Origin: a virus
Taxonomy: Duplodnaviria; Caudoviricetes
Virus record (IMG/VR): IMGVR_UViG_3300026094_000002
DNA: 64,000 nt
Strand: one strand, 5' to 3'
Below the pieces are notes generated by a model that did no database searches, was not told the origin of the DNA, and was given only the letters and a program-made list of their open reading frames with translations. A program made the translations under genes and the position numbers. This document shows positions 20,186-50,495 of this stretch, piece after piece; positions within the stretch are counted from its first letter, which is position 1; each line of letters opens with the position of its first letter.

Positions 20186-20494
20186 ATGGATTCAGATATC
20201 ATTTATCAACACGCAAAGGCAAGATTTGACCATGCTCGGTCTCAACAAATCTTGCGTGAAAAATACCAAGCCAAATTACAATTCGCATATAATGGAGGAA
20301 TGTGGGAGGCTGGTCCTTTATTAATCAACACACTAAACTGCATGTTAGATTCAGAAACACTCGTAATTGAAGATTTATATAAAAATCCAGTTAAAGTTAA
20401 TACACAAGAACTTTTAGAAATTGCTAAAACCCACTGGCAAGAACAAATGAACGGTTGGTTGGTTGAATACGAAGAAAACAATAAAGAAAGATGA
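20186..20494 (+). CDS. Hypothetical protein (102 aa)
   Basis: ORF with ATGA overlap into the next gene; first gene of the glyco-locus. Confidence 0.65.
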   Translation: MDSDIIYQHAKARFDHARSQQILREKYQAKLQFAYNGGMWEAGPLLINTLNCMLDSETLVIEDLYKNPVKVNTQELLEIAKTHWQEQMNGWLVEYEENNKER

Positions 20495-21294
20495 AAACTG
20501 GTGCTTTACTCTTTGCCTATAACACGGGTGATACTGATTATCTAAAAATGGCGGAGTTTTCTGCTAAAAATATAAAACGGTGGTTGAACATTCCTACTAC
20601 TGTCGTCACTGATGTTGAATACAAATCATCTACGTTTGATAATATTATTGTAAATGAAAACACAAAGTCTTCCAGAAGATATTTTGATGATAGAAACTCC
20701 GTAGTAGAATGGAGGAACTCAGGCCGTTCTCATGCATATGACTTAACTCCATACGATCAAACTTTATTGTTAGATGTTGATTACATAATTGCCAGCGAAC
20801 AATTACAAACAGTATTGAATAGTTCTTGTGATTTTGTTTGCCCCGATACTGCAATTGAAGTTTCAGGAACAAAAAGCAATAATCCAACATTTGGAAAATT
20901 TCATATGAGAATGTTTTGGGCAACTGTAATAATGTTTAGAAAAACAAAGCACAGCCAAATAATATTTGAACTTATAAAAATGATAGAAAATAATTTTGAT
21001 CATTATGCCAAACTATATGGATTCCCAGAAACACCTTTTAGAAATGATTACGCACTTAGTATTGCTTTGAGTATTGCATCAGGACATTTAGAAACAAAAA
21101 AACATGCAATACCATATCCTATGATTAATATTCATCCAGAACATAATGTTAAGATGATAGACACTGATTGTTTTGAAATAACTTATAAAAAAACAACAAA
21201 AAACCGCGAAAAACTTTTACGCAATAAAATTAAAAATCAAGATGTACATGTAATGGGCAAAACATCACTGGAGAAAATAGTTGAAACCAGTTGA
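20491..21294 (+). CDS. Glycosyltransferase-like protein (GT-A, GT8-like)
   Basis: TPYDQTLLLDVDY (DxD motif); FWATVIMF and FRNDYALSIA segments typical of GT8-like folds. Confidence 0.6.
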   Translation: MKTGALLFAYNTGDTDYLKMAEFSAKNIKRWLNIPTTVVTDVEYKSSTFDNIIVNENTKSSRRYFDDRNSVVEWRNSGRSHAYDLTPYDQTLLLDVDYIIASEQLQTVLNSSCDFVCPDTAIEVSGTKSNNPTFGKFHMRMFWATVIMFRKTKHSQIIFELIKMIENNFDHYAKLYGFPETPFRNDYALSIALSIASGHLETKKHAIPYPMINIHPEHNVKMIDTDCFEITYKKTTKNREKLLRNKIKNQDVHVMGKTSLEKIVETS

Positions 21295-22108
21295 TGATAA
21301 AGGTTATTTAATCACCGCAATAAAGAGTGAAACAACTGATTATCTAACATGTGCCCGGGCATTGGCAAAAAGTATTCGGTATTGGCAACCGGAATCAAAA
21401 ATTTGTCTTCTTACAAATTACGAGCAAGTTGAGAACGATAGCGTATTTGATTATGTAAAAGCGTTTCGGTATTCAATTGACGAGACTAATCCATTTGCAA
21501 ATGATTGGCAAATTTTCTTCTGTAGTCCGTTTCACGAAACAATAAAATTAGAATCTGATATTGTTTTAACTGGTTCAATAGAGCATTGGTGGACACACTT
21601 AAGAAAACGCGATGTTGTTATATCACAAGGATGCAGGAACTTTTATGGACATTGGTCTAAAGAAAGGTTTTACCGCCGGTTATTTGATCAAAACAATTTG
21701 CCTGATGTGTATAATGCAATTACATACTGGAGAATGAGTAAGTTTTCTAAAGAATTCTTTGCTCAAGTCAGACATATTTTTGATAACTGGGATAGTTATT
21801 ACAAATTATTATCTGGAGTTGACAAAGACTTGGTTCCAGACACAGATCTTGTGTATTCAATTGCTGCTGTCATGGTTGGAGAAGAAAATGTAACACTGCC
21901 AAATGCAGAATATCCAAGTTTTGTTCATATGAAAGGAAAGCACAATAATTTCCCCGGTGAAGATTGGACTCGGCATTTGGTATGGGAGTTAGATGAAGGA
22001 CAATTGCGAATTAATACATTTTCTCAACAGCAGCCTGTTCATTATCATGAGAAAACATTCTCACATAAAATAGAGGAACACTATGACCAACTTTTGGCAA
22101 GGTCTTGA
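21281..22108 (+). CDS. Glycosyltransferase-like protein, paralog of the upstream gene
   Basis: SPFHETIKLESD aligns with TPYDQTLLLDVD; DTDLVYSIA aligns with RNDYALSIA; FVHMKG. Confidence 0.55.
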   Translation: MKPVDDKGYLITAIKSETTDYLTCARALAKSIRYWQPESKICLLTNYEQVENDSVFDYVKAFRYSIDETNPFANDWQIFFCSPFHETIKLESDIVLTGSIEHWWTHLRKRDVVISQGCRNFYGHWSKERFYRRLFDQNNLPDVYNAITYWRMSKFSKEFFAQVRHIFDNWDSYYKLLSGVDKDLVPDTDLVYSIAAVMVGEENVTLPNAEYPSFVHMKGKHNNFPGEDWTRHLVWELDEGQLRINTFSQQQPVHYHEKTFSHKIEEHYDQLLARS

Positions 22109-22427
22109 AGAATTTAACCAACAAGAAAACAAACCGGTTGAAATAGAGTTTCGTTTATATTATAATGAGTATGGTTATCCGTTGTTTTATACAACAGAAA
22201 AAGTGTCTGGGAAATATATCGTTATAGACCGAGACACTTATGTTCGTGGAGATTACCAAAACATCAAGGTGAAAGATGGTCGTATTTTACAACAAAACCC
22301 CACTGATTCAATAAAGTTAGTACATGATGATTCGGCGGGAACTTGTTGTTTAAAAAATGACATTACACTAATTGACGAGTCTGGACAGGGACAATATTGG
22401 AAATTAAAAACACATGAATATCGTTGA
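22083..22427 (+). CDS. Hypothetical protein (114 aa)
   Basis: ORF overlapping both neighbours in operon style; GAGGA upstream. Confidence 0.6.
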   Translation: MTNFWQGLEEFNQQENKPVEIEFRLYYNEYGYPLFYTTEKVSGKYIVIDRDTYVRGDYQNIKVKDGRILQQNPTDSIKLVHDDSAGTCCLKNDITLIDESGQGQYWKLKTHEYR

Positions 22428-23337
22428 TATTGCAGATTTGGATTGTATATTTTTAACATATGACGAGCCCAAGAAAGAAGAATTTTGGACTATTGTAAAA
22501 AACACAGTGCCATGGGCAACCCGCGTTGATGGCGTAAAAGGCTCTGATGCAGCACACAAAGCAGCAGCAGAAGCCAGCGAAACTGACCGCTTTATTTTAA
22601 TTGATGGTGACAACCTACCAAATCCAGATTTCTTTGACTTGCAGTTAGAATTTAAAAACGAGCAACAGGAACAAGCAGTTTTTAGATGGAGAGCAAGAAA
22701 TAACATCAACGGATTAATGTATGGAAACGGCGGCATAAGTTCTTGGACAAAAGATTTTGTGCGAGAAATGAAAACTCACGAAAACTCCGATGGTTCTGAC
22801 AAGACCTTAGTAGAGTTTTGTTTTGATGACCGTTATTGGGCAATGCATGACTGTTATTCTACAACATATCCCAACGGTTCGGAATTTCATGCATGGAGAG
22901 CAGGATTCCGCGAAGGTGTTAAAATGTGCCTTGACAGAGGATATTGCCCTTCTGTCTCTGAATTCCGTGACAGAGTACATGATAGAAACCTTGACCACCT
23001 AAATATTTGGCAAAATGTTGGTTTAGATGTTGAATACGGTGCTTGGGCAATTGCCGGTGCTCGTCAGGGAACATTTTTAACAATGTTAGATAATTGGGAT
23101 TACAGAAATGTTCAGGATTTTTCTTACCTCGCTGATTTTTGGAATAGCGAAGTGCAATCTAAAAATCCGCATGATTTGATAAGTGAGTTTGGTGAACGCC
23201 TATGCCAACAATTAGATTTAACTGATAACTTACTTGATGAAAACGCCAGTAAATTTTTTAAGTATCACTATCGTCCAAATTGGAAAAACATTGGACCTAT
23301 GGTAACCGAGCGTCAAGCAATTACTGGTGTCGTGTGA
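22414..23337 (+). CDS. Glycosyltransferase-like protein (GT-A)
   Basis: DCIFLTYDEP, RVDGVKGSDAAH, FILIDGDN (DxD); homologous to the C-terminal domain of 40636..43053. Confidence 0.6.
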   Translation: MNIVDIADLDCIFLTYDEPKKEEFWTIVKNTVPWATRVDGVKGSDAAHKAAAEASETDRFILIDGDNLPNPDFFDLQLEFKNEQQEQAVFRWRARNNINGLMYGNGGISSWTKDFVREMKTHENSDGSDKTLVEFCFDDRYWAMHDCYSTTYPNGSEFHAWRAGFREGVKMCLDRGYCPSVSEFRDRVHDRNLDHLNIWQNVGLDVEYGAWAIAGARQGTFLTMLDNWDYRNVQDFSYLADFWNSEVQSKNPHDLISEFGERLCQQLDLTDNLLDENASKFFKYHYRPNWKNIGPMVTERQAITGVV

Positions 23338-24209
23338 CCGATTCTCAAAAGCCGACTCTTCCTTTTGTTGAAACCATGCTAACTCAAGCGTGTAATCTTT
23401 CTTGCAAAGGTTGTACAAACTTTAGCGATCTCAGTCACAAGGGGTATGTCACATGGGCAGAAGGAAAAGAATGGCTAACCGAATGGAAACAGCGTATAGA
23501 GATCCCAGACTTTGGCATCATGGGTGGCGAACCACTAATAAACCCTGAGTATAAAGATTGGCTTATTGGTGTTAGAGAGATGTTACCAGATAGCCAAATA
23601 AGATTTACTACCAATGGATTATTACTAGAAAAACACTGGGATGTATTAGATGTTATACAAGACATTGGTAATACAGTTTTTAAAATAACTGTTCATGTGG
23701 ATGACAAAAAATTAGAAAACACGATCCAAAAAATATTTGAAAAATATGACTGGGAACCAGTATTTGAATTTGGAATTCATCGTTGGGCCACAAAAAACGG
23801 GCTGCGGTTTCAAATAAACCGCCCGGACAAATTTATTAAAACTTTTAAAAATGATTATTCTCACATGTCGCCATGGCATGCTAACCCAAAGGATGCATTT
23901 GACAACTGTATACAGCAGACATGCCCTCTATTGCATAATGGAAGAATTTACAAGTGTAGCACTTCTGCTTTAATAAAAGACACACTAAGTCGTTATGACT
24001 TTCCAAATTGGAAAGAGTGGGAGCCATACATGTCAGAAGGAATACATTGGACAAGTGATGATACCCAAATTGACACTTTTATTAATAACTTTGGCAAGCC
24101 AAATAAAATATGTGCCCAATGCCCATCAGCCAGTCAAACAGATTCTATAGTTGACCACAAGATATATGTAAGTACCCGCAAAGTGAAAAAGTATATTACT
24201 AATGAGTAA
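23334..24209 (+). CDS. Radical SAM protein 1 (probable GTG start at 23334)
   Basis: CNLSCKGC (CxxxCxxC), MGGEP, FTTNG; extra C-terminal Cys (TCPLL..GRIYKC, ICAQCP); GTGA overlap with the previous stop. Confidence 0.9.
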   Translation: MTDSQKPTLPFVETMLTQACNLSCKGCTNFSDLSHKGYVTWAEGKEWLTEWKQRIEIPDFGIMGGEPLINPEYKDWLIGVREMLPDSQIRFTTNGLLLEKHWDVLDVIQDIGNTVFKITVHVDDKKLENTIQKIFEKYDWEPVFEFGIHRWATKNGLRFQINRPDKFIKTFKNDYSHMSPWHANPKDAFDNCIQQTCPLLHNGRIYKCSTSALIKDTLSRYDFPNWKEWEPYMSEGIHWTSDDTQIDTFINNFGKPNKICAQCPSASQTDSIVDHKIYVSTRKVKKYITNE

Positions 24210-25623
24210 AAATAATTCAGGCGATGAAGTAGATAACAACTTCAAGTCAAAATTTCTTTCTGATGCCGAAAAAATGAAGGAAAAGTTGGACGATGTCAGT
24301 CCGTCTATGTGTCTTGCTAAGTGGAAGCAAGTTAGTCTTCACTTAACAACTGGTCACAACAATAGTTGTTATCATCCTCCATTGCATAAAATTGATGCCA
24401 GTGAAATAACAAAAAATCCTGCAGCATTGCATAATACTCAACACAAAAAACAACAGCGTAAGTTAATGCTGGGAGGCACTCGTCCAACGGAATGTAGTTA
24501 CTGTTGGGCAATGGAAGATAATAATAAATTGAGCGACCGACATTATCGCTCTGGAGAACCGTGGGCTGCAGAACATTTTGATAATGTAGTCAATGCAGAC
24601 TGGGATGCTGATGTAACTCCAAGTTATGTTGAGGTAAATTTTAATTCTGCTTGTAATTTAAAATGTAGTTATTGTAGTCCGCAGTTTTCTACTACATGGA
24701 TGGAAGAAATAGATAAGCACGGTGCATATCCTACGTCTGTACCACATAATGCTCCTGAATATTTTAACGGTGATAGACGCAGAATTCTAAACCGTGAGTC
24801 TAATCCTTATGTAGACGCATTTTGGAAGTGGTGGCCAGACTTGTATCCAGAACTAAAGCATTTTAGGATGACAGGTGGTGAACCTCTTATGGATAAAAAT
24901 ACCTATCGTGTATTTGACCATGTTTTGGAAAATCCAAAATCTGATTTGCATCTAGCGGTGACAAGTAACTTTTCTGTCAATCAAAAATTATGGGACAAGT
25001 ACAAACAGTATGTAAGCAAGTTGTGTGAAGGTGAAACAATAGAACATTACATGCAATATGTCAGTGTTGATACATGGGGTGCCCAAGCAGAGTATGTTCG
25101 AAATGGGCTAGATTTTGGTCTACTATGGGATCGTGTTCATGAATTTTTAAATGATATTCCATACAGAAATTCTCTTACGTTTATCATAACTATGAACAAT
25201 CTATCTGTTCCTAATCTGGATAAACTTCTAGAGGGAATTTTAGAACTAAGAAAAACATATAGCGACACTTATCAGAGAATCTGGTTTGATACGCCAGTGT
25301 TGCACACACCAAAATGGCAAAGTATGCAAGTGCTTCCAGATAGCTATGCGTTTAAATTAAAAAAAATTAAACAGTGGATGGAAGAAAACATTGAAACAGA
25401 ACAATCTAGATTCCATGGGTTTAAGGATTACGAAATCAATAGACTAGATCGTGATATTGCATGGATGCAAGAAGAATTAAACGAAGAAGACAAAAAGCAG
25501 AGAATGGCTGATTTTTATAGATTTTTTTCTGAGCACGATTCCAGACGTTCAACAAATTTTATAGAAACTTTTCCAGAGATGTCAGAGTGGTGGCAACAGT
25601 GCAGGTACTCTGCAAATGCATAA
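24202..25623 (+). CDS. Radical SAM protein 2 with an N-terminal Twitch/SPASM-like domain
   Basis: CLAKW..SCYHP..CSYCW upstream of CNLKCSYC; TGGEP. Confidence 0.9.
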   Translation: MSKNNSGDEVDNNFKSKFLSDAEKMKEKLDDVSPSMCLAKWKQVSLHLTTGHNNSCYHPPLHKIDASEITKNPAALHNTQHKKQQRKLMLGGTRPTECSYCWAMEDNNKLSDRHYRSGEPWAAEHFDNVVNADWDADVTPSYVEVNFNSACNLKCSYCSPQFSTTWMEEIDKHGAYPTSVPHNAPEYFNGDRRRILNRESNPYVDAFWKWWPDLYPELKHFRMTGGEPLMDKNTYRVFDHVLENPKSDLHLAVTSNFSVNQKLWDKYKQYVSKLCEGETIEHYMQYVSVDTWGAQAEYVRNGLDFGLLWDRVHEFLNDIPYRNSLTFIITMNNLSVPNLDKLLEGILELRKTYSDTYQRIWFDTPVLHTPKWQSMQVLPDSYAFKLKKIKQWMEENIETEQSRFHGFKDYEINRLDRDIAWMQEELNEEDKKQRMADFYRFFSEHDSRRSTNFIETFPEMSEWWQQCRYSANA

Positions 25624-27346
25624 TACTTTTTCTTACGAAAATATAACAGAATTTCAAATTGAGGTAACCACACATTGTAATGCTGCTTGTCCACAATGTC
25701 CTAGGAATATTAATGGTGGAGAGACAAACCCATACCTTGAGGTTCAACATCTCAGTAGAGAAGTAATTGATTCTACTTTTGACGAATCTTTATGTAACCG
25801 CCTAAAACAAATATTTTTCTGTGGAAGTTACGGTGACCCGATTGTTCATCCTGAGTTTTTGAATATAATAAAAGATTTTAGAAAAAAATCTGATACCTTG
25901 TGGATTTATATTCATACCAATGGTGGAGTAAGAAATACAGAGTGGTGGAAAGAACTTGCTGAGACTATTGGCGATTATGGAAAAATTGATTTTAATATTG
26001 ACGGGCTAGATGATACGAATCATTTATATAGAAGAAATGTATCATTTGATAAAGCAATGGAAAATGCAAAAGCATTTATAACTGCCGGAGGCAAAGCACA
26101 ATGGAATTTTATTGTGTTCAAACACAACGAACACCAAGTTGACACTGCAAAAATGATGAGTAATTTGTGGGGATTTGAGAATATTGTCTTTCGTGGTACT
26201 GGGAGATTTCTTGATCATAAGACACTAGAAAAATCTGATGAGTGGAAGGTCACCCCAAAAAGAGGAACGGAGTACTATCTTAAACCAACAGATATTAAAA
26301 GGTATTCAAATCAAAGCATTGAAAATTTGCCAAATCTAAAAAAACAATACACAGATATTAAAGACTATTTTGATAAAACGCCAATAAAATGTGATGCTTT
26401 AACTGGAAAAAAGGCAGTAATAACAGCAGAAGGATTAGTTCTGCCTTGTAATTTTTTTGAACATAATTTATATGATGCGAGGTTCAAAGACGAAAGTGTA
26501 ATGCCCCGGGCAAACGAATTGCATTATGATGAAAACGGCAATAATCAAGTTGAAGAATTTATTAAAAAGTACGGAAAACAGAATCTAAGTATATATCACA
26601 ATTCATTAAAAACTATATTCAAAAATCCGTTTTGGGATGATCTTATAGATTCATGGAATAAAGATATTGACAATGGAAGATTATTTGAATGTGCATTTAC
26701 TTGTGGACAGAAATTAACTAAAACATGGGATCAAAATAAAACAGTGGCTAATACATATAGATATTATATTACAGGTGATAACAGAGGTTTAGGAAAGGCA
26801 TTAAAAGAACATTTCTACGGTGATGGCTCTAGCAGAAGCACAGGATATGATATAACTAATCCAGAGCATATCAAATTAATTGCAAAAGAATCATTGCATT
26901 ATGATGTTTTTATCAATAATGCATTTGATGGTCCACCAGATGAAGATTGGGCAAATTTTGCTCAGATTAATCTTCTTCATGCAGTATTTGATGAATGGAA
27001 ATTACATGAAAAAACTGGATGGATATTTAATATTGGTAGTATAGCAGAAAAAGCAATTGTTGCAGCAGAGCCAAAATGGGAAAGATACAGAGTAGCAAAG
27101 AGTGCATTGAGTTATGCCAGCAAACAATCAAGTACTGCTTTTAAAAATAATCTTGTAAATTTTAAGACAACACTAATAACACCTGACAGGTTAGACACAG
27201 AATTATCAAGATCAAAGCCAACATGGACTGGTAATGGCATCTCTTGTGATGATATTATCAGGTTTATAGAATATTGCACATCAATATCTTCTAACACGGT
27301 AGTTGACGAAATCTCATTATCGGTTAACTTTGATTACCAAAACTAA
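25616..27346 (+). CDS. Radical SAM protein 3 (C-terminal SPASM-like Cys) fused to a short-chain dehydrogenase domain
   Basis: CNAACPQC, IHTNG, KCDAL..GLVLPC..ECAFTC; then ITGDNRGLG, FINNA, NIGS, YRVAK. Confidence 0.85.
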   Translation: MHNTFSYENITEFQIEVTTHCNAACPQCPRNINGGETNPYLEVQHLSREVIDSTFDESLCNRLKQIFFCGSYGDPIVHPEFLNIIKDFRKKSDTLWIYIHTNGGVRNTEWWKELAETIGDYGKIDFNIDGLDDTNHLYRRNVSFDKAMENAKAFITAGGKAQWNFIVFKHNEHQVDTAKMMSNLWGFENIVFRGTGRFLDHKTLEKSDEWKVTPKRGTEYYLKPTDIKRYSNQSIENLPNLKKQYTDIKDYFDKTPIKCDALTGKKAVITAEGLVLPCNFFEHNLYDARFKDESVMPRANELHYDENGNNQVEEFIKKYGKQNLSIYHNSLKTIFKNPFWDDLIDSWNKDIDNGRLFECAFTCGQKLTKTWDQNKTVANTYRYYITGDNRGLGKALKEHFYGDGSSRSTGYDITNPEHIKLIAKESLHYDVFINNAFDGPPDEDWANFAQINLLHAVFDEWKLHEKTGWIFNIGSIAEKAIVAAEPKWERYRVAKSALSYASKQSSTAFKNNLVNFKTTLITPDRLDTELSRSKPTWTGNGISCDDIIRFIEYCTSISSNTVVDEISLSVNFDYQN

Positions 27347-27347
27347 T

Positions 27348-28691
27348 ATGAGTATGAATCCAGATTTAAAATTTAAAAAAGAGGTATTAGACAAAAAAAG
27401 TGAAAGTTTTTGTGCGGCTAAATGGTACAATGCTACTATATGGTTAGGGTCTGGTATGACAACGAGTTGTCACCATCCACCAGCCCATCATGTATCCGCT
27501 GATGATGTAAAGAAAAATCCAAAACTTCTTCATAATACTGATCAAAAAAAGAAAGACAGACAGCAAATGATTGCCGGTGAGCGACCACCGGGTTGTGAAT
27601 ATTGCTGGAAAATAGAAGACATGGAAAAAGATGCTATAAGTGATCGTGTCTATAAAACAAAAATATATTCACAAAAAGAAATTGATGATGCTTTCAATAT
27701 TCCAGTCAATGAAGATGTTGATTTAAAAACATTGGAAATTAGTTTTGATAGAACATGTAACTTTGCGTGCTCTTACTGTAACCCTGCGTTTTCTACAACA
27801 TGGGTCAAGGACATCAAGAAAAACGGGTCATATGGTGGGCTACAATCTGATGGTAGAAATCACTTTACTCATACACATGATTCTGCACAACTTTTTAAGT
27901 TTAAAGATACAAATCCGTATGCTGAAGCATTCATGCAATGGTGGGAATCTGATTTGCATAGAACCCTGCAGGAACTGCGAATAACTGGTGGTGAGCCTTT
28001 ACTATCTGGATATACATGGCAGTTGTTTGATTGGTTTAACGAGAACAAAGGTAAAAGTAATACTAGGCTGGCAATTAATTCTAATCTTGGGATAAATCGC
28101 AAAGAGGTTGACAGGTTATTGGATGCAACACAGAATGTTGAACTAGACTTATATACCTCAAATGAATCCATGGGAACACACGCAGAATACATCCGTGATG
28201 GTCTTGAGTGGCAGCAATGGATTGGCAATCTTGAGTACTTGCTAGAAGGCAAACAACTTCGTGGTCTACATTGTATGTGTACTATTAATGCATTATGCTT
28301 AGAAAGTCTGGATGAATTTTTGGATCTAATGTTATACTATAAACAGAATTACGGCAAAGAAGCAGTTAATTTTTCCCTAAATATTCTAAGATTTCCAAGT
28401 TTCCAAAGTGCACTTGTTCTTCCTGATGAAATAAGACAGTCTCGGGGCGATAAATTACAACAATGGTTTGACAAGAACAGTTCGTCAGAATTTTTGCATG
28501 AAATGGAACTAAATCAATTACAGCGATTAATTGACTACCTTGATATTGTAAAAACGCCGCATAGTGAAAGTTTTGAACTTCCAAAGTTGCGTAATGATTT
28601 TAAAAAATTCTTTGAGCAATATGATACAAGACGTGGAAAGAACTTTGCTGATACATTTCCAGAACTAAAGGATTGGTATGAATCTTTATGA
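27348..28691 (+). CDS. Radical SAM protein 4 with an N-terminal Twitch domain (paralog of RS2); start moved to ATG 27348
   Basis: CAAKW..SCHHP..CEYCW; CNFACSYC; TGGEP; ATG 1 nt after the previous stop. Confidence 0.9.
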   Translation: MSMNPDLKFKKEVLDKKSESFCAAKWYNATIWLGSGMTTSCHHPPAHHVSADDVKKNPKLLHNTDQKKKDRQQMIAGERPPGCEYCWKIEDMEKDAISDRVYKTKIYSQKEIDDAFNIPVNEDVDLKTLEISFDRTCNFACSYCNPAFSTTWVKDIKKNGSYGGLQSDGRNHFTHTHDSAQLFKFKDTNPYAEAFMQWWESDLHRTLQELRITGGEPLLSGYTWQLFDWFNENKGKSNTRLAINSNLGINRKEVDRLLDATQNVELDLYTSNESMGTHAEYIRDGLEWQQWIGNLEYLLEGKQLRGLHCMCTINALCLESLDEFLDLMLYYKQNYGKEAVNFSLNILRFPSFQSALVLPDEIRQSRGDKLQQWFDKNSSSEFLHEMELNQLQRLIDYLDIVKTPHSESFELPKLRNDFKKFFEQYDTRRGKNFADTFPELKDWYESL

Positions 28692-29692
28692 CTGTACAAG
28701 TAGAGGTTAATGACAATCATGATTTTTGGTTTCATAATGAATCAATAAATCAAATAATCTCAGAACTTATTAACAATGGGCGTGTAACCATAAACTTTAA
28801 TACAGAAGGGCCGTGTGTAAAATCAATGGGACTTTATGAGTTTCTTGAAAATATATCAAGCAATTTAAACATACCTCATAATAATATAGAAATACGAACA
28901 CACAATCAAGTAGAATACCACCCAACATTTAAAATAACTAAACTTCCTCTGGCACATTCTCTGCCCACTGTTCAAAATGAATTGTTTTTTGATGAAAACA
29001 AGCATATGAAGAGTTTTAGTGATAAATCTTTTAAAAAATTTGCTTGTTTTGTTGGAAGAAATTCATGGGATAGGTTACGGATTTCTAGCAGACTTTATAA
29101 AGAATATAAAGAAGAAAGCATCCAAACATATCATTTAAATATAGATGATAAAAAGTCCCTTGAAAGAAGTATTCTTGGTGTTGATACTATTATTAGCAAT
29201 TCTGCTAGTATTGACACTGCGAAAGATGCTTTAAACTTTTTGACAGAATGTCCTTTTAATGGACCAGATAATATAAATCAATATCCGATAACAGTTGATT
29301 CTAATTTAAACATTGATAGTGAGTATTATCGTTTTTTTCTAGAAGTTGTGTGTGAAACTTATATCAAGGGAAATACATTTTTCCCTACAGAAAAAACGTG
29401 GCGTCCTATTGCACTTAAAACCCCATTTGTTGTCAATGGGCCAGTTGGCTTCTTAAAGAATTTAAAGAAATTGGGATTCAAAACATTTGATAGGTGGTGG
29501 GAAGAATCTTATGATTATAATGGGCATGAAGCGAGAATAGAAAAGATTTTTAAAATTATAGATTATATTTCTACTCTATCAATATCAGAATTAAATACCA
29601 TGTATAATGAAATGCAAGATGTTCTAGAGCATAATTATCAGATTCTTTATAAATTAACACTAGAAGATTTTAAAAAAGTATTTCATTATTGA
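28688..29692 (+). CDS. GT-B/GT10-like 'TEK' glycosyltransferase paralog 1
   Basis: VVCETY..FPTEKTWRPIALKTPFVV..LKKLGFKTF..WEESYD. Confidence 0.55.
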   Translation: MTVQVEVNDNHDFWFHNESINQIISELINNGRVTINFNTEGPCVKSMGLYEFLENISSNLNIPHNNIEIRTHNQVEYHPTFKITKLPLAHSLPTVQNELFFDENKHMKSFSDKSFKKFACFVGRNSWDRLRISSRLYKEYKEESIQTYHLNIDDKKSLERSILGVDTIISNSASIDTAKDALNFLTECPFNGPDNINQYPITVDSNLNIDSEYYRFFLEVVCETYIKGNTFFPTEKTWRPIALKTPFVVNGPVGFLKNLKKLGFKTFDRWWEESYDYNGHEARIEKIFKIIDYISTLSISELNTMYNEMQDVLEHNYQILYKLTLEDFKKVFHY

Positions 29693-29710
29693 TTATTAGG
29701 GATTTATTTT

Positions 29711-29953
29711 ATGATTAAAAACATGAAAGACCACTTAAAAAACAGCAGCATGACATATACATACCATATGCTTCACGCTTGTCATTACGGTTTTAGGTTG
29801 TTGTGGGCGGGATTTAAAAGTATTATTCATGGAATTTTCCCACTAGTATGGAAATATGATGGTCCTAGATCGATAATTAAAATGTATAGAGAATTACGCC
29901 GACATAAACACATCCGTAAAATGATGGATGAAGATACCGATGAGCAGAAATGA
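29711..29953 (+). CDS. Small membrane protein (DUF6356-like)
   Basis: HLKNSSMTYTYH..A..SIIHGIFP pattern with a hydrophobic helix; family name recalled, not searched. Confidence 0.45.
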   Translation: MIKNMKDHLKNSSMTYTYHMLHACHYGFRLLWAGFKSIIHGIFPLVWKYDGPRSIIKMYRELRRHKHIRKMMDEDTDEQK

Positions 29954-30521
29954 ATTTTTTGCGATATCTTTTGATACTTCTATATTAAATGATTTAACAC
30001 AATATTCAAATCTTCCAGAAGTTAATGTCATAAACCCGATTGACTTTTTAAATCAGAGCAAAGTTGATAATTCTAAATACTTCATTAATTTAGTAACACA
30101 AGATTTTGATTTAAGAAAACAAATTTCTCATCATATGGATACTGTTAAGTGTAAAAGATTTAGCATTATTCACCATCAATCTTATGTAGAGGGATCAGAA
30201 ATTGGTGATGGCTCATTTATATATCCCAATGTAACAGCATATCCTAAATCAAAAATAGGAAAAGACGTTATTATACAATCTAATAGTAGGATTTCTCATA
30301 ATGCAACAATTGATGATGGGTGTTTTATTGGTGGTCTTACGAATATTTCTGGATCAGTGACTGTTGGTTCCTTCTGTAAAATATTCCCGTGCTGCAATAT
30401 AGTTGATAAAGTTAATATTGTTGATGATGTTACATTGGGAACTAGAAGCACAATAAGAAAAAATATTACAGAAAGTGGAACATATTCAGAATTACCAAAC
30501 AAAGTTAAAAAGATTAGATAA
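29928..30521 (+). CDS. Hexapeptide-repeat sugar N/O-acetyltransferase (PglD/NeuD-like); alternative start 29940
   Basis: Left-handed beta-helix hexapeptides (IGDGSF, IGKDVI, ISHNATIDDGCFIG, VTVGSFC, IVDDVTLG). Confidence 0.8.
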   Translation: MKIPMSRNEFFAISFDTSILNDLTQYSNLPEVNVINPIDFLNQSKVDNSKYFINLVTQDFDLRKQISHHMDTVKCKRFSIIHHQSYVEGSEIGDGSFIYPNVTAYPKSKIGKDVIIQSNSRISHNATIDDGCFIGGLTNISGSVTVGSFCKIFPCCNIVDKVNIVDDVTLGTRSTIRKNITESGTYSELPNKVKKIR

Positions 30522-30523
30522 GA

Positions 30524-31813
30524 ATGACATACAATTATAATAGTACTGAACCAGTAAAAATTTCTAGTGATGATTTATCAGAGCGACATAAAGAATTAGT
30601 AACTGAAAGTAAAACTTTTTGCATATATCCTTGGATACATTTACATGCTTATCCAACGGGAGAAGCGTTCCCCTGTTGTCATGCAGAAATGAAAGAAGGT
30701 CCAGTTGGAAATTGTAAAGAGAATACTTTAAAAGAAATTTGGAATTCTAAGGAAATGAAAAATCTTCGGAAAGATATGTTAAATGGGACACCAAATTCCT
30801 ATTGCACAAGATGCTATGAACAAGAAGATTCTGGGTTTTTCTCTGGTCGCCAAAGTGCTAACAAACATCATGGCCATCATATAGACAGAGTTGATGAAAC
30901 TAACGAAGACGGTTCATATGACGAGTTTGCTATGACCTATTGGGATATAAGATTTAGCAACCTTTGTAATCTTAAATGTCGTAGTTGTGGTCATATATTT
31001 TCTAGCAATTGGTATAGCGATCAAGCAAAACTAGCCGGTGAAGACTGGAAGAAACATAATAAAGCACTTAACTTTGCTGGACGATGGGAAACCGATGTAT
31101 GGGAGCAACTTGTTGAGCACTTAGATTATGTTGAACAAATTTACTTCGCTGGTGGCGAGCCACTGTTAATGGAAGAACATTATCGCATTTTAGACGAATT
31201 GGAACGACGTGGAAGATTTGATGTTCGTTTAATTTATAACAGTAACTTTACAGAAACCAGTCTCAAAGGTCGTTCAGTTTTTGATTATTGGAAAAAGTTT
31301 GACTCTGTTGCCGTTGGTGCAAGTTTGGATGCCTCTGGAGAAAGAGCAGAGTATATTAGAAAAGGGACTAAGTGGGATAAGGTATTAAGAAATCGTGAAG
31401 AAATGTTGGAAACATGTCCTGAGGTTGATTTTTATATTTCACCAACGCTTTCAATAATGAATGCATGGCATTTGCCCGATTTTCATCGTGACTGGGTAGA
31501 AAGAGGCTTTATCCGTGCCCAAGATCTTAATGTTAACATCTTACAAGATCCAGTGCATTATAGAATAGATATTGCTCCAGATGCGTATAAGCAACAATTA
31601 AAAGAGAAGTATGAAGAGCATTTAAAATGGTTGCGACCATTTGATAAACTTAATCGGGCCTCTGTGGGGTTTGAAAGTGCTATATCTTTCATGATGTCTA
31701 CCAATAATCAACATCTGATTCCTGAGTTTTGGGCACGTACAAGACAACTAGATGAAATTAGAAAAGAAGATATTTTAGACATATTACCAGAACTAAAGGC
31801 TATAGCGGTTTAA
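30524..31813 (+). CDS. Radical SAM protein 5 with an N-terminal Twitch/SPASM domain
   Basis: CIYPW..PCC..CTRCY; CNLKCRSC; FAGGEP. Confidence 0.9.
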   Translation: MTYNYNSTEPVKISSDDLSERHKELVTESKTFCIYPWIHLHAYPTGEAFPCCHAEMKEGPVGNCKENTLKEIWNSKEMKNLRKDMLNGTPNSYCTRCYEQEDSGFFSGRQSANKHHGHHIDRVDETNEDGSYDEFAMTYWDIRFSNLCNLKCRSCGHIFSSNWYSDQAKLAGEDWKKHNKALNFAGRWETDVWEQLVEHLDYVEQIYFAGGEPLLMEEHYRILDELERRGRFDVRLIYNSNFTETSLKGRSVFDYWKKFDSVAVGASLDASGERAEYIRKGTKWDKVLRNREEMLETCPEVDFYISPTLSIMNAWHLPDFHRDWVERGFIRAQDLNVNILQDPVHYRIDIAPDAYKQQLKEKYEEHLKWLRPFDKLNRASVGFESAISFMMSTNNQHLIPEFWARTRQLDEIRKEDILDILPELKAIAV

Positions 31814-33021
31814 TGAAAATTCCTCATGAAAAGTTTTGTGTTTTGCCTTGGGTTAGTATGGAGACTAGCCCTACTGGAACTGTAAGACCATGCTGTTTGG
31901 CTGAGGATGAAATTGCTGATGATAATGGCAACCCATTTGAACTTGCTAGTGCACCATTTTCTCAAATTCAAAATAGCAATCATATGAAAACTCTCCGCAG
32001 AGAGTTTCTTGACGGCAAACGGCCTAATACTTGTCAAAAATGCTGGAATGAAGAAGATGCTGGAAGAACCAGTAAAAGAATGCACACGCTGGATCGCTTA
32101 AAACACATTATACCAGATAATATACAGTGGAGCGAAGAGGCAGAGCCACTAATGTTTCTAGATTTAAAACTGGGGAACATATGCAACTTAAAGTGCAGAA
32201 TATGTGGCTCATGGTCTTCGAGTGCATTTGCAACAGAAGAACTTCAAAGTATGCCACGTGAGCAAAAAAAGTCCAGTTTTCAATACATGATGCTAAAAAA
32301 AGGTGCATGGCCAAGAGAGAAAACAGAATTCTGGGATGAATTAGAAAACATATTAGACCAAATACGCTACATTGAATTTACTGGCGGTGAGCCTTTTATG
32401 ATAGGCGAGCATTTTGAATTGCTCCAAAATTTAGTAGATAAAGGAATCGCCCCACAAGTTGAAATACACTATAATACAAATGGGACACATTTCCCAGAAC
32501 ATGCAATCGATACTTGGAAGCATTTTAAACATGTAGAGGTTGCTTTTAGTATTGATGATGTTGGAGAAAGGTTTGAGTACCAGCGGACCAATGCTATATG
32601 GAATGAGGTTGAAGATAATATTGCTAGATTTAAGAAATTAAGAAAAGAGTTGAATAACATGTCTTTGCAGGTATGTTCAACAGTAAACGCTTACAATGTT
32701 TACTATCTTTCAGATTTGGCACACTGGATTGATCAGCAAAACTTTGATTTTATCTATTGGAATATGTTACACGAACCTCATTATCTTAGTGTCAGTCGCT
32801 TACCAAAAAAAGCAAAAGCGTTTGCGATTGAATCGTTAGAGCAGAGTGATGTTTCTACGCGGCATCGTTTAGAGTTTAACCATATCATTGATTTTATCAC
32901 TAATGGTGAAACAACAGACGGTTCTGAACTGCTAGATAATATAAAATTGCTTGACGATAGGAGAAATGTCAACCTCGCCGATTCTCACGAAAAGTGGGCA
33001 GAGGTTCTAGGATATGGATAA
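31813..33021 (+). CDS. Radical SAM protein 6 with an N-terminal Twitch/SPASM domain
   Basis: CVLPW..RPCC..CQKCW; CNLKCRIC; TGGEP; YNTNG. Confidence 0.9.
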   Translation: MKIPHEKFCVLPWVSMETSPTGTVRPCCLAEDEIADDNGNPFELASAPFSQIQNSNHMKTLRREFLDGKRPNTCQKCWNEEDAGRTSKRMHTLDRLKHIIPDNIQWSEEAEPLMFLDLKLGNICNLKCRICGSWSSSAFATEELQSMPREQKKSSFQYMMLKKGAWPREKTEFWDELENILDQIRYIEFTGGEPFMIGEHFELLQNLVDKGIAPQVEIHYNTNGTHFPEHAIDTWKHFKHVEVAFSIDDVGERFEYQRTNAIWNEVEDNIARFKKLRKELNNMSLQVCSTVNAYNVYYLSDLAHWIDQQNFDFIYWNMLHEPHYLSVSRLPKKAKAFAIESLEQSDVSTRHRLEFNHIIDFITNGETTDGSELLDNIKLLDDRRNVNLADSHEKWAEVLGYG

Positions 33022-34324
33022 GCCAGAAAAAAAGCCTGAAACGCTTTGTATGGCTCCATGGGTACACACATATCTAAGCCCTCAAACAGAGAGAAGAATG
33101 TGTTGTGCAAGCAGAGAACCAGCACAAAATTTTGAACAGTATATAGATACAGAATCTGGAACGGGAGAGTATAATCCTCAGGCTTTAGATGAACACTGGA
33201 ACAGTGACCACATGCGATCTGTTAGACGACGCATGATGGCTGGCGAAACGCTTCCTGAATGTGAGGTTTGTAATAATAAACTCTTGAATACTGATGTGTA
33301 TCGTGATTATTTTTGGCACTTATTTCGTCGTCGGTATGATGAAATATGGGAATCGACTGACTCAGATGGTTACACACATATGAAGCCTATTTCTTGGGAT
33401 TATAGGTTTTCTAACTTATGCAATTTTAAATGCCGTATGTGTGGGGATATGCTTAGTTCTGCATGGGAGTCAGAGCAAAGACAACAAAATATGATCAATT
33501 GGCACGATCCAAAAAATAATTGGATGAAGCCAGAAATAAGAAAGCAAATATCAAAATTTCAAGATACACAAATTGAAAAAGAATTTTCTGATGCTGTAGA
33601 AGAGCACCGTGTTGAAGAAATATATTGGGTAGGTGGTGAGCCTCTTATGTATGAACAACATTGGCGATATATGAAGCGTATTGTTGATTTGGGCGATGGC
33701 CCGGGACTTTATGCCAGATATAATACAAATCTAAGTCGTGTGAAGTATAAAGGCATTGATTTATTTGACGACATACTCTCTAACATTAGAGATTGGCAAA
33801 TATGTGCAAGTTTAGATGGTACTGGACCTATTGGTGAATACATTCGTACTGGGCTGAATTATGAACAATGGTTAGAAAATTTTAAAAGAGCAATCACTTA
33901 TGCAAAGAATCGTCGTCAAGTAAGATTAGACTTTACTCTTACTCTGCCCGGGCTATTTGAAGTTCAAAATATTCAAGACTTATCACAAAATCTTGGTGTT
34001 GATATCCTAGCAAAAGTAATATTCAGTTTTGGACCAGATATATTTTTGAGTCCATTAGCACTTCCAAGAACAGTACTAGACCGTAAGGTTGATGAAGTCA
34101 GCGATGGGTTGCCAAATGGTGCACTTAAAGATGTTCTACTACAACTTAAAACTAGACCCACATTTGAAGAACAATGGCCAGATACGTTTGTAGATGGGTT
34201 AGCAGCAGGAAAGTCCAGAATACTTCAATTAGAGAAAATTAGAACACAGCCAACAACAATGGCATATATATTAGAAAAGGACCCAGAAATTTATGAGTGG
34301 TGGAAAAACATTAGATCAGATTGA
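33014..34324 (+). CDS. Radical SAM protein 7 with an N-terminal Twitch/SPASM domain
   Basis: CMAPW..RMCC..CEVC; CNFKCRMC; VGGEP. Confidence 0.9.
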   Translation: MDKPEKKPETLCMAPWVHTYLSPQTERRMCCASREPAQNFEQYIDTESGTGEYNPQALDEHWNSDHMRSVRRRMMAGETLPECEVCNNKLLNTDVYRDYFWHLFRRRYDEIWESTDSDGYTHMKPISWDYRFSNLCNFKCRMCGDMLSSAWESEQRQQNMINWHDPKNNWMKPEIRKQISKFQDTQIEKEFSDAVEEHRVEEIYWVGGEPLMYEQHWRYMKRIVDLGDGPGLYARYNTNLSRVKYKGIDLFDDILSNIRDWQICASLDGTGPIGEYIRTGLNYEQWLENFKRAITYAKNRRQVRLDFTLTLPGLFEVQNIQDLSQNLGVDILAKVIFSFGPDIFLSPLALPRTVLDRKVDEVSDGLPNGALKDVLLQLKTRPTFEEQWPDTFVDGLAAGKSRILQLEKIRTQPTTMAYILEKDPEIYEWWKNIRSD

Positions 34325-35378
34325 AATTGATTTACGAAATTATGAAACGGGAGATTTACATACCCTTTATATAGACGTCCACGATAACAGTCTTAGCTAT
34401 AAGTGGTTAAAAGAATTAAATCATTTAATAAAAAATGAATATCATTTAGAAAAAAACTATTGTTTTGTAGGATTTTCTGATTCAGAACGCAATGGTTGGT
34501 ATATTTGTGACCGAATCAATGAAACTATTGCAGCAATAAACAAGTCAACTACTGATTATTTTATAGATGATTATTTTAGCATAGAAAATGCTCTGGATAA
34601 TACTGAATATTATGCAGGTGATCCGGGAAGACATATAAACCATGATAAGTTTAATTGGCTACACCGTTATTTTGAAGATTTACAAGGTGTCAGCGGCAAT
34701 ATGTCATCACACTATATTAATGCTGACTCAACAACTCGTTGGCATATTAGGCAGTTAAACTTGTTATGTCACGAGTTTGAATCATGGGCTTTGAGTTACC
34801 GAAAAAAGGCACAAGCACCCGAGTGGCAAAGGCCAAGCCAACTAATGTGTTGGTTGAATGCCCCAAGATTTATATTATCGGAAGAAGACTATGAGTGTTT
34901 TGGAATTGAGACCTTAAATCGTGATCAAGGTGGCGTGTTTGTCGGAGTTAATAAAGCAGTAGGAAAAGACCACTGGGAAGTTTTTAATGATGAAGATGGA
35001 GCAGACATTGATGACTTGGTAACTGTAGCATTAAAACCACAAACAGAAGCTGCTGGTGATTTTGATATAGAATGGGGGCAGAATCCATCTGGAAAAGATT
35101 GGCAAATTATGAAACTAAATGAATTCAGACAATGGCTCATAAGAAATAATTTTGATCCAGAAGACAAATCTCTGACAATTGGACACCCACAAGTTGGCCA
35201 GATTGATTTAGAAAAGTCCTTCCCTAATCCCAGTAGGGAAGGCATTTGGGATCTACTCAACAATTTCCTTGATGTTTATAGTATAAGAACTTCTGATGCC
35301 TCCGTAGTCTATGATTATCATTGGTCTGATAAGAATTATGCTGAGCAGCAAATAGAAATATCAAGGAATAATCAGTAA
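34293..35378 (+). CDS. Hypothetical protein (361 aa)
   Basis: Long ORF in operon continuity; no motif recognised. Confidence 0.7.
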   Translation: MSGGKTLDQIEIDLRNYETGDLHTLYIDVHDNSLSYKWLKELNHLIKNEYHLEKNYCFVGFSDSERNGWYICDRINETIAAINKSTTDYFIDDYFSIENALDNTEYYAGDPGRHINHDKFNWLHRYFEDLQGVSGNMSSHYINADSTTRWHIRQLNLLCHEFESWALSYRKKAQAPEWQRPSQLMCWLNAPRFILSEEDYECFGIETLNRDQGGVFVGVNKAVGKDHWEVFNDEDGADIDDLVTVALKPQTEAAGDFDIEWGQNPSGKDWQIMKLNEFRQWLIRNNFDPEDKSLTIGHPQVGQIDLEKSFPNPSREGIWDLLNNFLDVYSIRTSDASVVYDYHWSDKNYAEQQIEISRNNQ

Positions 35379-35494
35379 TGTTTAAAAAAATAAAGAAATT
35401 TATCACACGCATTTATAACAAAATCAAATTAGAAATACGGTATAGAAAAAAATTACGCAAATTGCGTAAACGTGACCCATTCATATATAAATGA
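35378..35494 (+). CDS. 38-aa highly basic peptide (MFKKIKKFITRIYNKIKLEIRYRKKLRKLRKRDPFIYK), not in the ORF track
   Basis: TAATG overlap with the upstream stop and ATGA overlap with the carbamoyltransferase start; exactly fills the gap. Confidence 0.75.
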   Translation: MFKKIKKFITRIYNKIKLEIRYRKKLRKLRKRDPFIYK

Positions 35495-36996
35495 GCTACA
35501 TCTTAGGAATCAGTTCTGGATTTCATGATGCTGCAGCAAGTGTCGTTTCCCAAGACGGAGAAATAGTTTTTGCCGGTCATAGTGAAAGATATAGTAAAAA
35601 GAAAAACGACCCTAATTTACATCCTGCACTTATAAAAGATGCAATGCAATGGGATGTATCTTCTATTGCATATTATGAAAGGCCGTGGATGCACAATGTG
35701 CAAAAAATACGAAGTGGTCAGTATGGGTTGACGCCGTGGTCAACACGAGGTGTTTTAAAACAACAGTTAAATTCATATGCAAAACCTCTGTTAAAAAAAT
35801 GTAGTATTTCACGATTTTCACACCATCTCAGCCATGCAGCAGCAGGATTTCAAACATCTCCGTATGAAGAAGCTGCTGTTGTTGTTATTGACGCAATTGG
35901 GGAATTGGACACAATATCCATATATCATGCGTCATATGATGCTAATGGTATCGCACAATATAAAAAAATGTGGGGGCAAAAGTACCCTCATAGCATAGGT
36001 CTATTTTACTCTGCTATCACACAGGCGATTGGATTAAAACCAATGGAAGATGAATATGTCACAATGGGTATGGCAGGTTGGGGGTCCGACTTTGGTGCTG
36101 TGATGATGAAAAGTGACTTCTTTATTGACATATCAACGGGTGAATTAAATCAAAATCTTCATATGGGCATTGACAATAGTCATTTTAAGAAAAATCAATA
36201 TATTCGTGCCAATAAAGAGAATATCGCTGCAAGTGCTCAGAGAGTAGTAGAAGAGGCAATATTAGAAATAATGCGACGGGCTAAAAATCTTACCAAATCT
36301 GAAAATTTGGTTTTTATGGGTGGAGTTGCTTTAAACTGTGTTGCTAATAGTCGTTTGGGTGTTATATTTCCAAATATGTGGATAATGCCTAATCCGAGTG
36401 ATGCAGGGTCAAGTTTGGGTGCAGCAGCACTACAGTATAAAAAGCCATTGAAATGGAAAGATGCATATCTTGGTCACGAAATTCCCGGCGAATATCCAGT
36501 CAATGATATTGTTGATAGACTGGTAACTGATAAGATAGTTGGTGTAGCATCAGGCAGAGCAGAGTTTGGTCCAAGGGCACTTGGAAACAGAAGTCTCTTA
36601 GCAGACCCGCGTGGCAAAGATATAAAAGATAGAGTAAATGAAATAAAGAAAAGACAGAAGTTTAGGCCATTTGCCCCAGCAATATTAGAAGAGCATGTAG
36701 ATGATTATTTTGAAATGCCGGGCAATGTTTCTACAAGTCCTTATATGCAGACAGTTGCCAGAGTTAAACATCCGGAAGACTTCCCAGCAATAACGCATGT
36801 AGATGGTACTGCACGAGTTCAAACAGTTCCAGATGATGGGTCAGGATTTAGAAAGTTGCTGGAACTATGGTATGTCTGGTCAGGATGTCCAATGCTGTTA
36901 AATACCAGTCTTAATATACGCGGTGAGCCGATGGTTAACGACAGACAGGATGCTGACAGATTCCAGAAGAAATACGGCGTTACTGTTTGTAGTTAA
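35491..36996 (+). CDS. Carbamoyltransferase (NodU/CmcH family)
   Basis: ILGISSGFHDAAA, HHLSHAAAG, GGVALNC, GRAEFGPRALGNRS, RPFAP, HVDGTARVQTV, LLNTSLN. Confidence 0.95.
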   Translation: MSYILGISSGFHDAAASVVSQDGEIVFAGHSERYSKKKNDPNLHPALIKDAMQWDVSSIAYYERPWMHNVQKIRSGQYGLTPWSTRGVLKQQLNSYAKPLLKKCSISRFSHHLSHAAAGFQTSPYEEAAVVVIDAIGELDTISIYHASYDANGIAQYKKMWGQKYPHSIGLFYSAITQAIGLKPMEDEYVTMGMAGWGSDFGAVMMKSDFFIDISTGELNQNLHMGIDNSHFKKNQYIRANKENIAASAQRVVEEAILEIMRRAKNLTKSENLVFMGGVALNCVANSRLGVIFPNMWIMPNPSDAGSSLGAAALQYKKPLKWKDAYLGHEIPGEYPVNDIVDRLVTDKIVGVASGRAEFGPRALGNRSLLADPRGKDIKDRVNEIKKRQKFRPFAPAILEEHVDDYFEMPGNVSTSPYMQTVARVKHPEDFPAITHVDGTARVQTVPDDGSGFRKLLELWYVWSGCPMLLNTSLNIRGEPMVNDRQDADRFQKKYGVTVCS

Positions 36997-50458: not shown

Positions 50459-50495
50459 AACAATATTTATAAGGATATAGGAACGAAGTGTAAAA

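Follow-up and report, generated by a model that had tools for sequence, protein, structure and literature searches.

Five co-inherited radical SAM enzymes of the N_Twi family in the tail-fibre operon of large uncultured phages

Several groups of viruses run glycosylation machineries of their own, as in mycobacteriophage virion glycosylation and the glycans of chloroviruses and mimiviruses. Among the radical S-adenosylmethionine (SAM) enzymes of solved structure, anSME, CteB, SuiB and BlsE carry their auxiliary domain at the C-terminus, whereas enzymes of the N_Twi family carry it at the N-terminus. This family is defined by the curated NCBIfam model NF033640 (N_Twi_rSAM, twitch domain-containing radical SAM protein), in which an N-terminal Cys-rich domain is followed by CxxxCxxC. 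It is a sequence model only and is silent on multi-paralog arrays or phages, and our literature search found no paper that names N_Twi_rSAM or NF033640 or gives the family a function. For phages, a 183-kb T4-like marine viral genome with a gene for an A-type Fe–S carrier and 12 radical SAM genes has been described (Nishimura et al. 2017; PMC5332604). Here we analysed a 64,000-nt stretch of DNA (the window) from the IMG/VR virus record IMGVR_UViG_3300026094_000002, which is 194.5 kb long with a CheckV completeness of 56%, and found that five of its seven arrayed radical SAM genes form a set that is inherited together across a wide clade of large phages.

The initial annotation of this DNA had placed seven radical SAM open reading frames (ORFs) with intact triads at 23334–34324, and indeed each of the seven contains exactly one CxxxCxxC. 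All are on the + strand, co-directional and mostly overlapping, and the array is broken between RS4 and RS5 by three genes that are not radical SAM enzymes (28688–30521). RS2 (24202–25623), RS4 (27303–28691, with the true start probably the ATG at about 27348), RS5 (30524–31813), RS6 (31813–33021) and RS7 (33014–34324) are matched end to end by NF033640 with 324, 314, 432, 359 and 288 bits, respectively, against a curated cut-off of 170 bits, while RS1 (32.9 bits) and RS3 (29 bits) miss the cut-off and are not members. The broader Pfam model Radical_SAM (PF04055, gathering threshold 29.5 bits) matches RS1 (53.6 bits), RS3 (48.3), RS4 (31.5), RS5 (31.9), RS6 (50.7) and RS7 (39.2); RS2 is under this threshold at 21.4 bits, yet clearly passes NF033640. 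Because RS2, RS4 and RS5–RS7 all pass NF033640 and align over their whole length, with a mutual identity of 20–37%, they are one family with two subtypes. By sequence criteria the seven enzymes are thus three families, not the four architectures originally proposed, and the N-terminal auxiliary domain, which had been regarded as unusual, is what defines a curated family.

The arrangement of the auxiliary motifs was described correctly. RS2 and RS4, which are 35% identical, carry CxAKW...SCxHP...CxYCW (the CxAKW..SCxHP..CxxC subtype), RS5–RS7 carry CxxPW...CC...CxxC, and in all five the motif is N-terminal to the triad. Pfam SPASM hits lie at the N-terminal ends of RS5 (48.8 bits, residues 33–98) and RS6 (28.2 bits), and RS7 scores 21.0 bits, just under the cut-off of 21.5. 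Four conserved Cys positions precede the triad, three of them invariant and the fourth in one alignment column with the leading Cys of the CC pair in RS5–RS7. In RS5 numbering, C33, C94 and C97 are invariant and C51/C52 near-invariant, all before C148/C152/C155, a pattern that would fit one auxiliary [4Fe–4S] cluster. GGEP is invariant in all five enzymes, and in an alignment of 82 phage plus cellular N_Twi sequences the auxiliary and catalytic cysteines and GGEP are invariant throughout.

Homologs of RS5 are abundant in a large protein collection (>7,700, many at about 73% identity), and we compared 82 loci, 80 from IMG/VR and two from metagenomes, with 10-kb flanks. These share a fixed gene order: c329, d102, e267, f275, g114, h307, RS2, RS4, RS5, RS6, RS7, k361, a micropeptide gene and a carbamoyltransferase gene, with the backbone genes from h307 to the carbamoyltransferase present in 65–82 of the 82 loci and variable genes between them. 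The five N_Twi genes occur in 75–82 loci at 61–71% identity: RS2 in 80 (66% identity), RS4 in 80, RS5 in all 82 (71%), RS6 in 80 and RS7 in 75 (71%). The ratio of nonsynonymous to synonymous substitutions (dN/dS; Nei–Gojobori, ortholog pairs with 0.05 < dS < 1.5) is 0.069 for RS2, 0.097 for RS4, 0.070 for RS5, 0.087 for RS6 and 0.098 for RS7, and for their neighbours 0.075 (h307), 0.097 (k361) and 0.13 (carbamoyltransferase). A broad clade of large uncultured phages therefore keeps the five N_Twi genes together in a constant order, with strong purifying selection acting on them. About 20 RS5 orthologs, together with P0035 (L013 10001–11701), reach ~560 aa through an extra N-terminal domain of ~138 aa that has no family assignment; the RS5 of the window is without it.

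The tandem arrangement and the extra RS2-, RS4-, RS5- and RS6-like copies found in some relatives might suggest redundant or decaying duplicates without distinct roles. We consider this very improbable, since none of the catalytic and auxiliary cysteines is lost in about 80 orthologous loci, at a dN/dS of 0.07–0.10, from which we conclude, as did the initial annotation, that the genes are not decaying duplicates. The low identity among the paralogs also stands against the strong conservation of each one across phages, the cluster ligands are all intact, and each paralog has a separate clade, most with their own cellular relative. Neither relaxed selection nor an above-cut-off family match of any array enzyme to a characterised housekeeping enzyme, both named beforehand as findings that would speak against the prediction, was observed.

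The cellular relatives were searched in one genome per prokaryotic species. An alignment of the seven paralogs proved too divergent to serve as a query, and a search of the cellular genomes with RS6 alone found nothing. Cellular N_Twi genes with 35–45% identity to RS5 are found in Bacteroidota, Bdellovibrionota, Elusimicrobiota, Paenibacillus and others. When the sequences were placed in a maximum-likelihood tree, the phage orthogroups separated into five clades of their own, with support of 94–100 in the Shimodaira–Hasegawa-like approximate likelihood-ratio test (SH-aLRT). A cellular sister group is well supported for RS2, RS4 and RS6 (SH-aLRT 97–100) and more weakly for RS5 (89), and RS7 does not resolve among the cellular sequences; the sister of the RS2 clade is from Bacteriovoracaceae. 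A contig of Bacteriovoracaceae bacterium UBA6144 (L102 6076–18072; 2.6-Mb genome) has eight N_Twi genes in a row, which are all the N_Twi genes of this genome. They comprise two RS2-like (48% and 35% identity), two RS4-like (53% and 55%), one RS5-like (43%), two RS6-like (30% and 35%) and one RS7-like gene (43%), so that each of the five phage enzymes has a counterpart. The array adjoins the genes for ribosomal protein L21, Obg and RsfS, which shows that the contig is cellular. Two unknown ORFs of 143 and 320 aa lie inside the array. An Oligoflexia genome has a similar array of four genes beside Fur and ABC-transporter genes.

The separate clades and the Bacteriovoracaceae array indicate that the paralogs diverged long ago and have been passed on as a set, and this co-inheritance is the best evidence that the five enzymes work together on one substrate. 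The initial annotation had predicted serial, position-specific radical reactions on one substrate class for all seven enzymes. Our data fit joint action of the five N_Twi enzymes, which are co-inherited in phages and Bacteriovoracaceae, and do not support it for RS1 and RS3, which lie outside the set (7 and 3 of the 82 loci, respectively).

Each core enzyme has an N-terminal domain of the twitch/SPASM type, probably with a single cluster, followed by a partial TIM barrel that carries CxxxCxxC and by a C-terminal region of helices. By analogy with the superfamily, reductive cleavage of SAM at the CxxxCxxC cluster would give a 5′-deoxyadenosyl radical, which would abstract a hydrogen from the substrate, and the N-terminal auxiliary [4Fe–4S] cluster may, as it does in other enzymes of the twitch/SPASM type, handle the electron or assist in holding the substrate. 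As the five paralogs are deeply diverged and inherited as a set, they may catalyse different, successive steps on one substrate. A PDB sequence search with the N_Twi profile returned distant radical SAM cores only. The AlphaFold2 (AF2) model of RS5 (predicted local distance difference test, pLDDT, 94.6) shares the core fold and the kind of auxiliary [4Fe–4S] domain with anSME, CteB, SuiB and BlsE in Foldseek (E 2e-5 to 6e-4), at 12–22% identity and template modelling (TM) scores of about 0.35–0.46. With identity and TM scores this low, no substrate can be transferred from these enzymes to the N_Twi set. Sugar-modifying twitch radical SAM enzymes are represented by BtrN, BlsE and DesII. The match to the sugar enzyme BlsE (E 4e-5, TM 0.36/0.46) is no better than those to the peptide maturases, and RS6 scores 21 bits on the BlsE model TIGR04466 against a cut-off of 400.

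The genomic surroundings in the phages may point to a substrate. The array lies in a run of eighteen + strand genes (20186–36996), seven of them for radical SAM enzymes, that overlap or abut without a promoter-sized gap and share their strand with the tail-fibre genes. Immediately upstream are very large fibre-type genes, namely an ORF of 4662 aa and one of 478 aa with a Peptidase_G2 domain of the tail-spike chaperone type. We tentatively favour the reading that the five enzymes carry out a stepwise radical tailoring of a phage-encoded glycan. The most likely substrate would then be a carbohydrate structure built and decorated by the products of the flanking genes, i.e. the GT8-like and GT10-like candidates, the carbamoyltransferase, the acetyltransferase, the DegT aminotransferase and the 4,6-dehydratase/epimerase. 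Since the genes are predicted to be co-transcribed with the tail-fibre genes and directly follow them, the product would probably be a glycan of the virion surface or the fibre. An association with genes for nucleoside diphosphate (NDP)-sugar enzymes and glycosyltransferases is indeed present, as DegT, epimerase/dehydratase, carbamoyltransferase, acetyltransferase and GT10-like genes are found in the locus or in the variable slots of relatives.

Several of these flanking assignments are secure. The gene at 35491–36996 (+) encodes a carbamoyltransferase of the NodU/CmcH type (Carbam_trans_N 124 bits, Carbam_trans_C 174 bits) and is present in 65 of the 82 loci. A hexapeptide-repeat acetyltransferase (29928–30521, +; Pfam Hexapep 63 bits) is an accessory gene of this locus (1 of 82), and its relation to NeuD/PglB/VioB (TIGR03570, 88.8 bits) is below the cut-off of 160.8 bits. 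Beyond the operon, a DegT/DnrJ/EryC1 sugar aminotransferase (43031–44110; Pfam 191.8 bits) and an NAD-dependent NDP-sugar epimerase/dehydratase (44120–45061; Pfam Epimerase 143.6 bits, GDP_Man_Dehyd 128 bits) are encoded on the − strand.

The candidate glycosyltransferases are weaker and serve as leads. The paralogs e267 (20491–21294, +; 64 of 82 loci) and f275 (21281–22108, +; 67 of 82) may be GT8-like: their profile aligns with glycogenin-1 (GT8) in the DxD region at an E-value of only 0.2–0.5, and no member of the family gave a Pfam glycosyltransferase match, so that the assignment is a lead. h307 (22414–23337, +; 74 of 82 loci, 65% identity) has an LIDGD motif and is a possible GT-A enzyme; it has no Pfam match, a PDB profile search gave nothing meaningful, and its glycosyltransferase hints in the Atlas score below 0.9. 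An 805-aa protein encoded at 40636–43053 (+), also without a Pfam match, has a C-terminus homologous to h307 (BLASTP, 26% identity over 252 aa, E 1e-14). In the variable slot after RS4, i334 (28688–29692, +) is a GT10-like (fucosyltransferase-type) candidate glycosyltransferase, and three paralogs, l392, m457 and n370 (392, 457 and 370 aa), lie on the − strand at 36980–40637, convergent with the operon. Further paralogs are at about 8.6–10.0, 36.3–37.3, 40.9–41.9, 53.1–54.3, 111.6–112.9 and 127.7–128.8 kb of the record, which brings the family to 10 paralogs in the 194.5-kb record, an unusual expansion for a phage. The conserved TEK motif of this family is reminiscent of GT10 fucosyltransferases. 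All named Atlas matches of n370 are Glyco_transf_10 with a score of 0.80, which makes them a lead only, and the structural matches of the family include viral fusions to Epimerase/GDP_Man_Dehyd. No member of the family has a Pfam glycosyltransferase match, and a PDB profile search gave nothing meaningful. The small ORFs d102 (20186–20494, +), which is the first gene of the operon (53 of 82 loci), g114 (22083–22427, +; 69 of 82) and the lineage-specific j80 (29711–29953, +; 1 of 82) have no family match.

Across the 82 loci, RS1, the RS3 fusion, the hexapeptide acetyltransferase and i334 are accessory genes in variable slots. RS1 (23334–24209, +; the ORF is open from a TTG at 23280) has a GTG start in a GTGA overlap with the upstream gene's stop and carries the triad CNLSCKGC; RS1-like genes in the other loci are 28% identical. 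RS3 (25616–27346, +) combines a radical SAM core and a C-terminal Cys set with a short-chain dehydrogenase/reductase (SDR; NCBIfam match at residues 418–531, E 3e-5), and its counterparts in these loci are ~30% identical. That these two carry their Cys sets at the C-terminus agrees with the initial annotation. RS3-type fusions are common elsewhere (2513 full-length homologs, about 63% identity), and in a T4-like TARA contig (L173 10001–12612) a 63%-identical fusion, followed by a second small radical SAM gene, has gp46/47-like recombination genes on one side and T4 baseplate/portal genes on the other, a long way from any array. This placement suggests that the RS3-type fusion is a separate mobile module in marine T4-like phages. 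RS1 was considered as kin of the second radical SAM of this contig and rejected, as the two are not related. Other slot contents in relatives are extra radical SAM enzymes, several methyltransferases including the FkbM type, DegT aminotransferases, NDP-sugar epimerase/dehydratase, an AMP-binding enzyme, SAM synthetase and an enzyme of the PNP_UDP_1 family; many of the 97 clusters of variable-slot genes have no Pfam family match. We take the PNP_UDP_1 family to include 5′-methylthioadenosine/S-adenosylhomocysteine nucleosidases, which would suit the removal of 5′-deoxyadenosine. As a whole, the phage locus resembles a hypervariable island for glycan building that is attached to a tail-fibre operon and whose constant core is the radical SAM set.

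Some observations weigh against a glycan as the substrate. No member of the N_Twi family has a known substrate, and the chemistry is drawn from the superfamily. The glycosyltransferase-like calls for e267/f275, h307 and i334 are below significance in Pfam and PDB sequence searches. The Bdellovibrionota arrays adjoin housekeeping or transport genes and are without glycosyltransferases, which indicates that the set does not need a glycan cluster; the cellular arrays are also without the phage glycosyltransferase-like genes, k361 and the micropeptide. Among the closest solved folds are the peptide-modifying enzymes CteB, anSME and SuiB besides BlsE, and as the RS5 model resembles the four about equally, sugar and peptide chemistry are not separated by structure. 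Finally, neither of the strictly conserved neighbours, k361 and the micropeptide, can be recognised as a sugar enzyme.

These two neighbours bring in the maturation of a peptide or protein by the five enzymes and k361. k361 (34293–35378, +) directly follows RS7 and is present in 69 of the 82 loci. Its AF2 model (pLDDT 88.7) shows a cyclophilin-like β-barrel with an inserted helical bundle of ~110 residues, and VIA-align 2 gives Z 9–10 to some 25 cyclophilins over about 145 residues; no PDB match was found with Foldseek at E 0.001 or better, the AFDB matches are uncharacterised proteins, and there is no Pfam or PHROG match. The micropeptide gene (35378–35494, +), two genes after RS7, encodes a basic, Lys/Arg-rich peptide of 38 aa here and 33 aa in most relatives, with the 33-aa consensus MxWIKxLWxRIxLEIRYRKKLKELRKRDPFIYK and, in the window, the C-terminus ...LEIRYRKKL+ELRKRDPFIYK. 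The micropeptide has the near-invariant ending ...LEIRYRKKLKELRKRDPFIYK, and no other coding element of the locus is as strongly conserved. The motif is found in 67 phage loci (e.g. L010 14917–15018 and L013 15266–15367), in two copies in some relatives (L035, L087), and has no NCBIfam or PHROG family match. Variation by codon position is 0.11/0.04/0.31; third positions vary and second positions hardly do, indicating that the micropeptide is translated and under stronger constraint than any enzyme in the locus. TAATG/ATGA overlaps join its gene to k361 and to the next gene, consistent with translational coupling, and in 60 of 69 cases it comes after k361; the gene next in line is variable.

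The target of such a maturation would be the 33-aa micropeptide, in the manner of a ribosomally made and post-translationally modified peptide (RiPP) or a cofactor, or else a virion or fibre protein, with modifications such as cross-links or epimerisation. We regard it as fairly unlikely, although SPASM/twitch radical SAM enzymes are typically peptide maturases, as the top folds CteB, anSME and SuiB illustrate. The near-invariant coding micropeptide coupled to k361, the cyclophilin-like fold of k361 (such folds often bind Pro-containing peptides) and the position of the array directly after the tail-fibre genes also favour it. However, Pfam searches of the core genes and the 97 variable-slot clusters, many of them without any family match, found no RiPP recognition element, peptidase, exporter or other RiPP hallmark. 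Furthermore, the set works without the micropeptide and k361 in the Bacteriovoracaceae array, at other cellular N_Twi loci and in Vibrio phage K566, from all of which both are absent, and the micropeptide, Lys/Arg-rich and helical in character, is unlike typical core peptides. The narrower proposal that the five enzymes and k361 mature the micropeptide itself into a heavily modified peptide or cofactor, as a multi-radical-SAM RiPP-like pathway in a tail-fibre operon, we judge quite improbable. A predicted complex of k361 and the micropeptide (score 0.02) gave no verdict and is used neither way.

The cellular arrays suggest another alternative, in which the set acts on a general cell component, e.g. 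an envelope, lipid or other molecule belonging to the host or producer, without involvement of the glycan genes and as an auxiliary metabolic or host-remodelling module. In Bacteriovoracaceae and Oligoflexia the arrays indeed stand alone, as islands next to L21/Obg/RsfS in the former and to Fur and ABC-transporter genes in the latter. Among 145 genes that flank cellular N_Twi genes, GT2 is the commonest family (9), which speaks for the glycan reading, and the PhyH dioxygenases (6) and β-ketoacyl synthases (4) that follow would suit such a target. The phage also carries further N_Twi genes elsewhere, RS8 and RS9. On the other hand, the roughly 80 phage loci always embed the set at the same spot of the tail-fibre-proximal island, between h307 and k361, and this constant position argues for a functional tie of the set to the island. 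We therefore hold a general cell component to be an unlikely target, and retain glycan tailoring as the tentative reading for the phages.

RS8 and RS9 belong to a wider complement of radical SAM genes. The 194.5-kb record has 13 Pfam Radical_SAM matches overall, six of them outside the array: 70471–71640, 99718–100893, 106540–107040, 113954–114301 and 118556–119659 of the record, and 52582–54129 (−) of the window. Two of the six are N_Twi members above the NF033640 cut-off, RS8, which is nearest to RS6 (37%), and the very divergent RS9; one outside the array is of the B12-binding type.

No near-identical phage DNA was found by megablast against 50,697 phage records, and in a protein search of these records N_Twi genes occurred only in Vibrio phages K566/K567, Ralstonia phage RsoM2USA and one marine virus fragment, at 24–26% identity. 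The isolated Vibrio phage K566 (255 kb) has four N_Twi genes interleaved with genes for hypothetical proteins (record 161548–168284) and is also without the glycosyltransferase-like families. Near-identical DNA is present in metagenome runs labelled soil from two further studies, each with more than half of the sampled words, and lake and other aquatic metagenome runs gave partial matches. No RNA run is listed among the public runs with near-identical DNA. The full T4 late promoter consensus TATAAATA occurs once in the window, at 50464–50471 (−), outside the cluster, and TAAATA is not found within 60 nt upstream of any cluster gene start, except for a tail-fibre gene at 17662. With no late-promoter motif at the cluster genes, late timing would have to be read from the operon layout. 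Portal_T4 was not found in the 56%-complete record, from which a T4-like nature of the phage cannot be confirmed. Two contigs, L094 (183 kb) and L095 (148 kb), from a metagenome-assembled genome (MAG) labelled Haliscomenobacter sp., carry the locus in its phage form, including the micropeptide and an RS5 of 70% identity. Both contigs probably are phage genomes that were binned into this MAG, and they may hint at a Saprospiraceae host, which proves nothing.

The 12 radical SAM genes of the described T4-like genome are comparable in number to the 13 Radical_SAM matches of the present record. That study counts the radical SAM genes under Fe–S metabolism, without the N-terminal-twitch family, the five-gene set, its neighbours or a function (PMC5332604). 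A co-inherited set of five paralogs with fixed partners seems to be new to the literature, both for large phages and for Bdellovibrionota. N_Twi is a large family, and what was a listing of radical SAM domain proteins becomes, through our results, a defined and testable multi-enzyme system, whose occurrence spans about 80 viral contigs of many separate metagenome samples as well as predatory bacteria. The conserved partner protein, the micropeptide and the cultivable N_Twi carriers Vibrio phages K566/K567 and Ralstonia phage RsoM2USA provide handles for experiments. If the product is a peptide, it would represent a new class of phage-encoded natural product; if it is a virion glycan, radical chemistry would join the phage tools for surface diversification. 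Like the virus glycosylation systems, the locus has its own glycosyltransferase-like and NDP-sugar genes beside structural genes. To our knowledge, radical SAM enzymes are not part of those systems, whereas here five of them constitute the conserved core.

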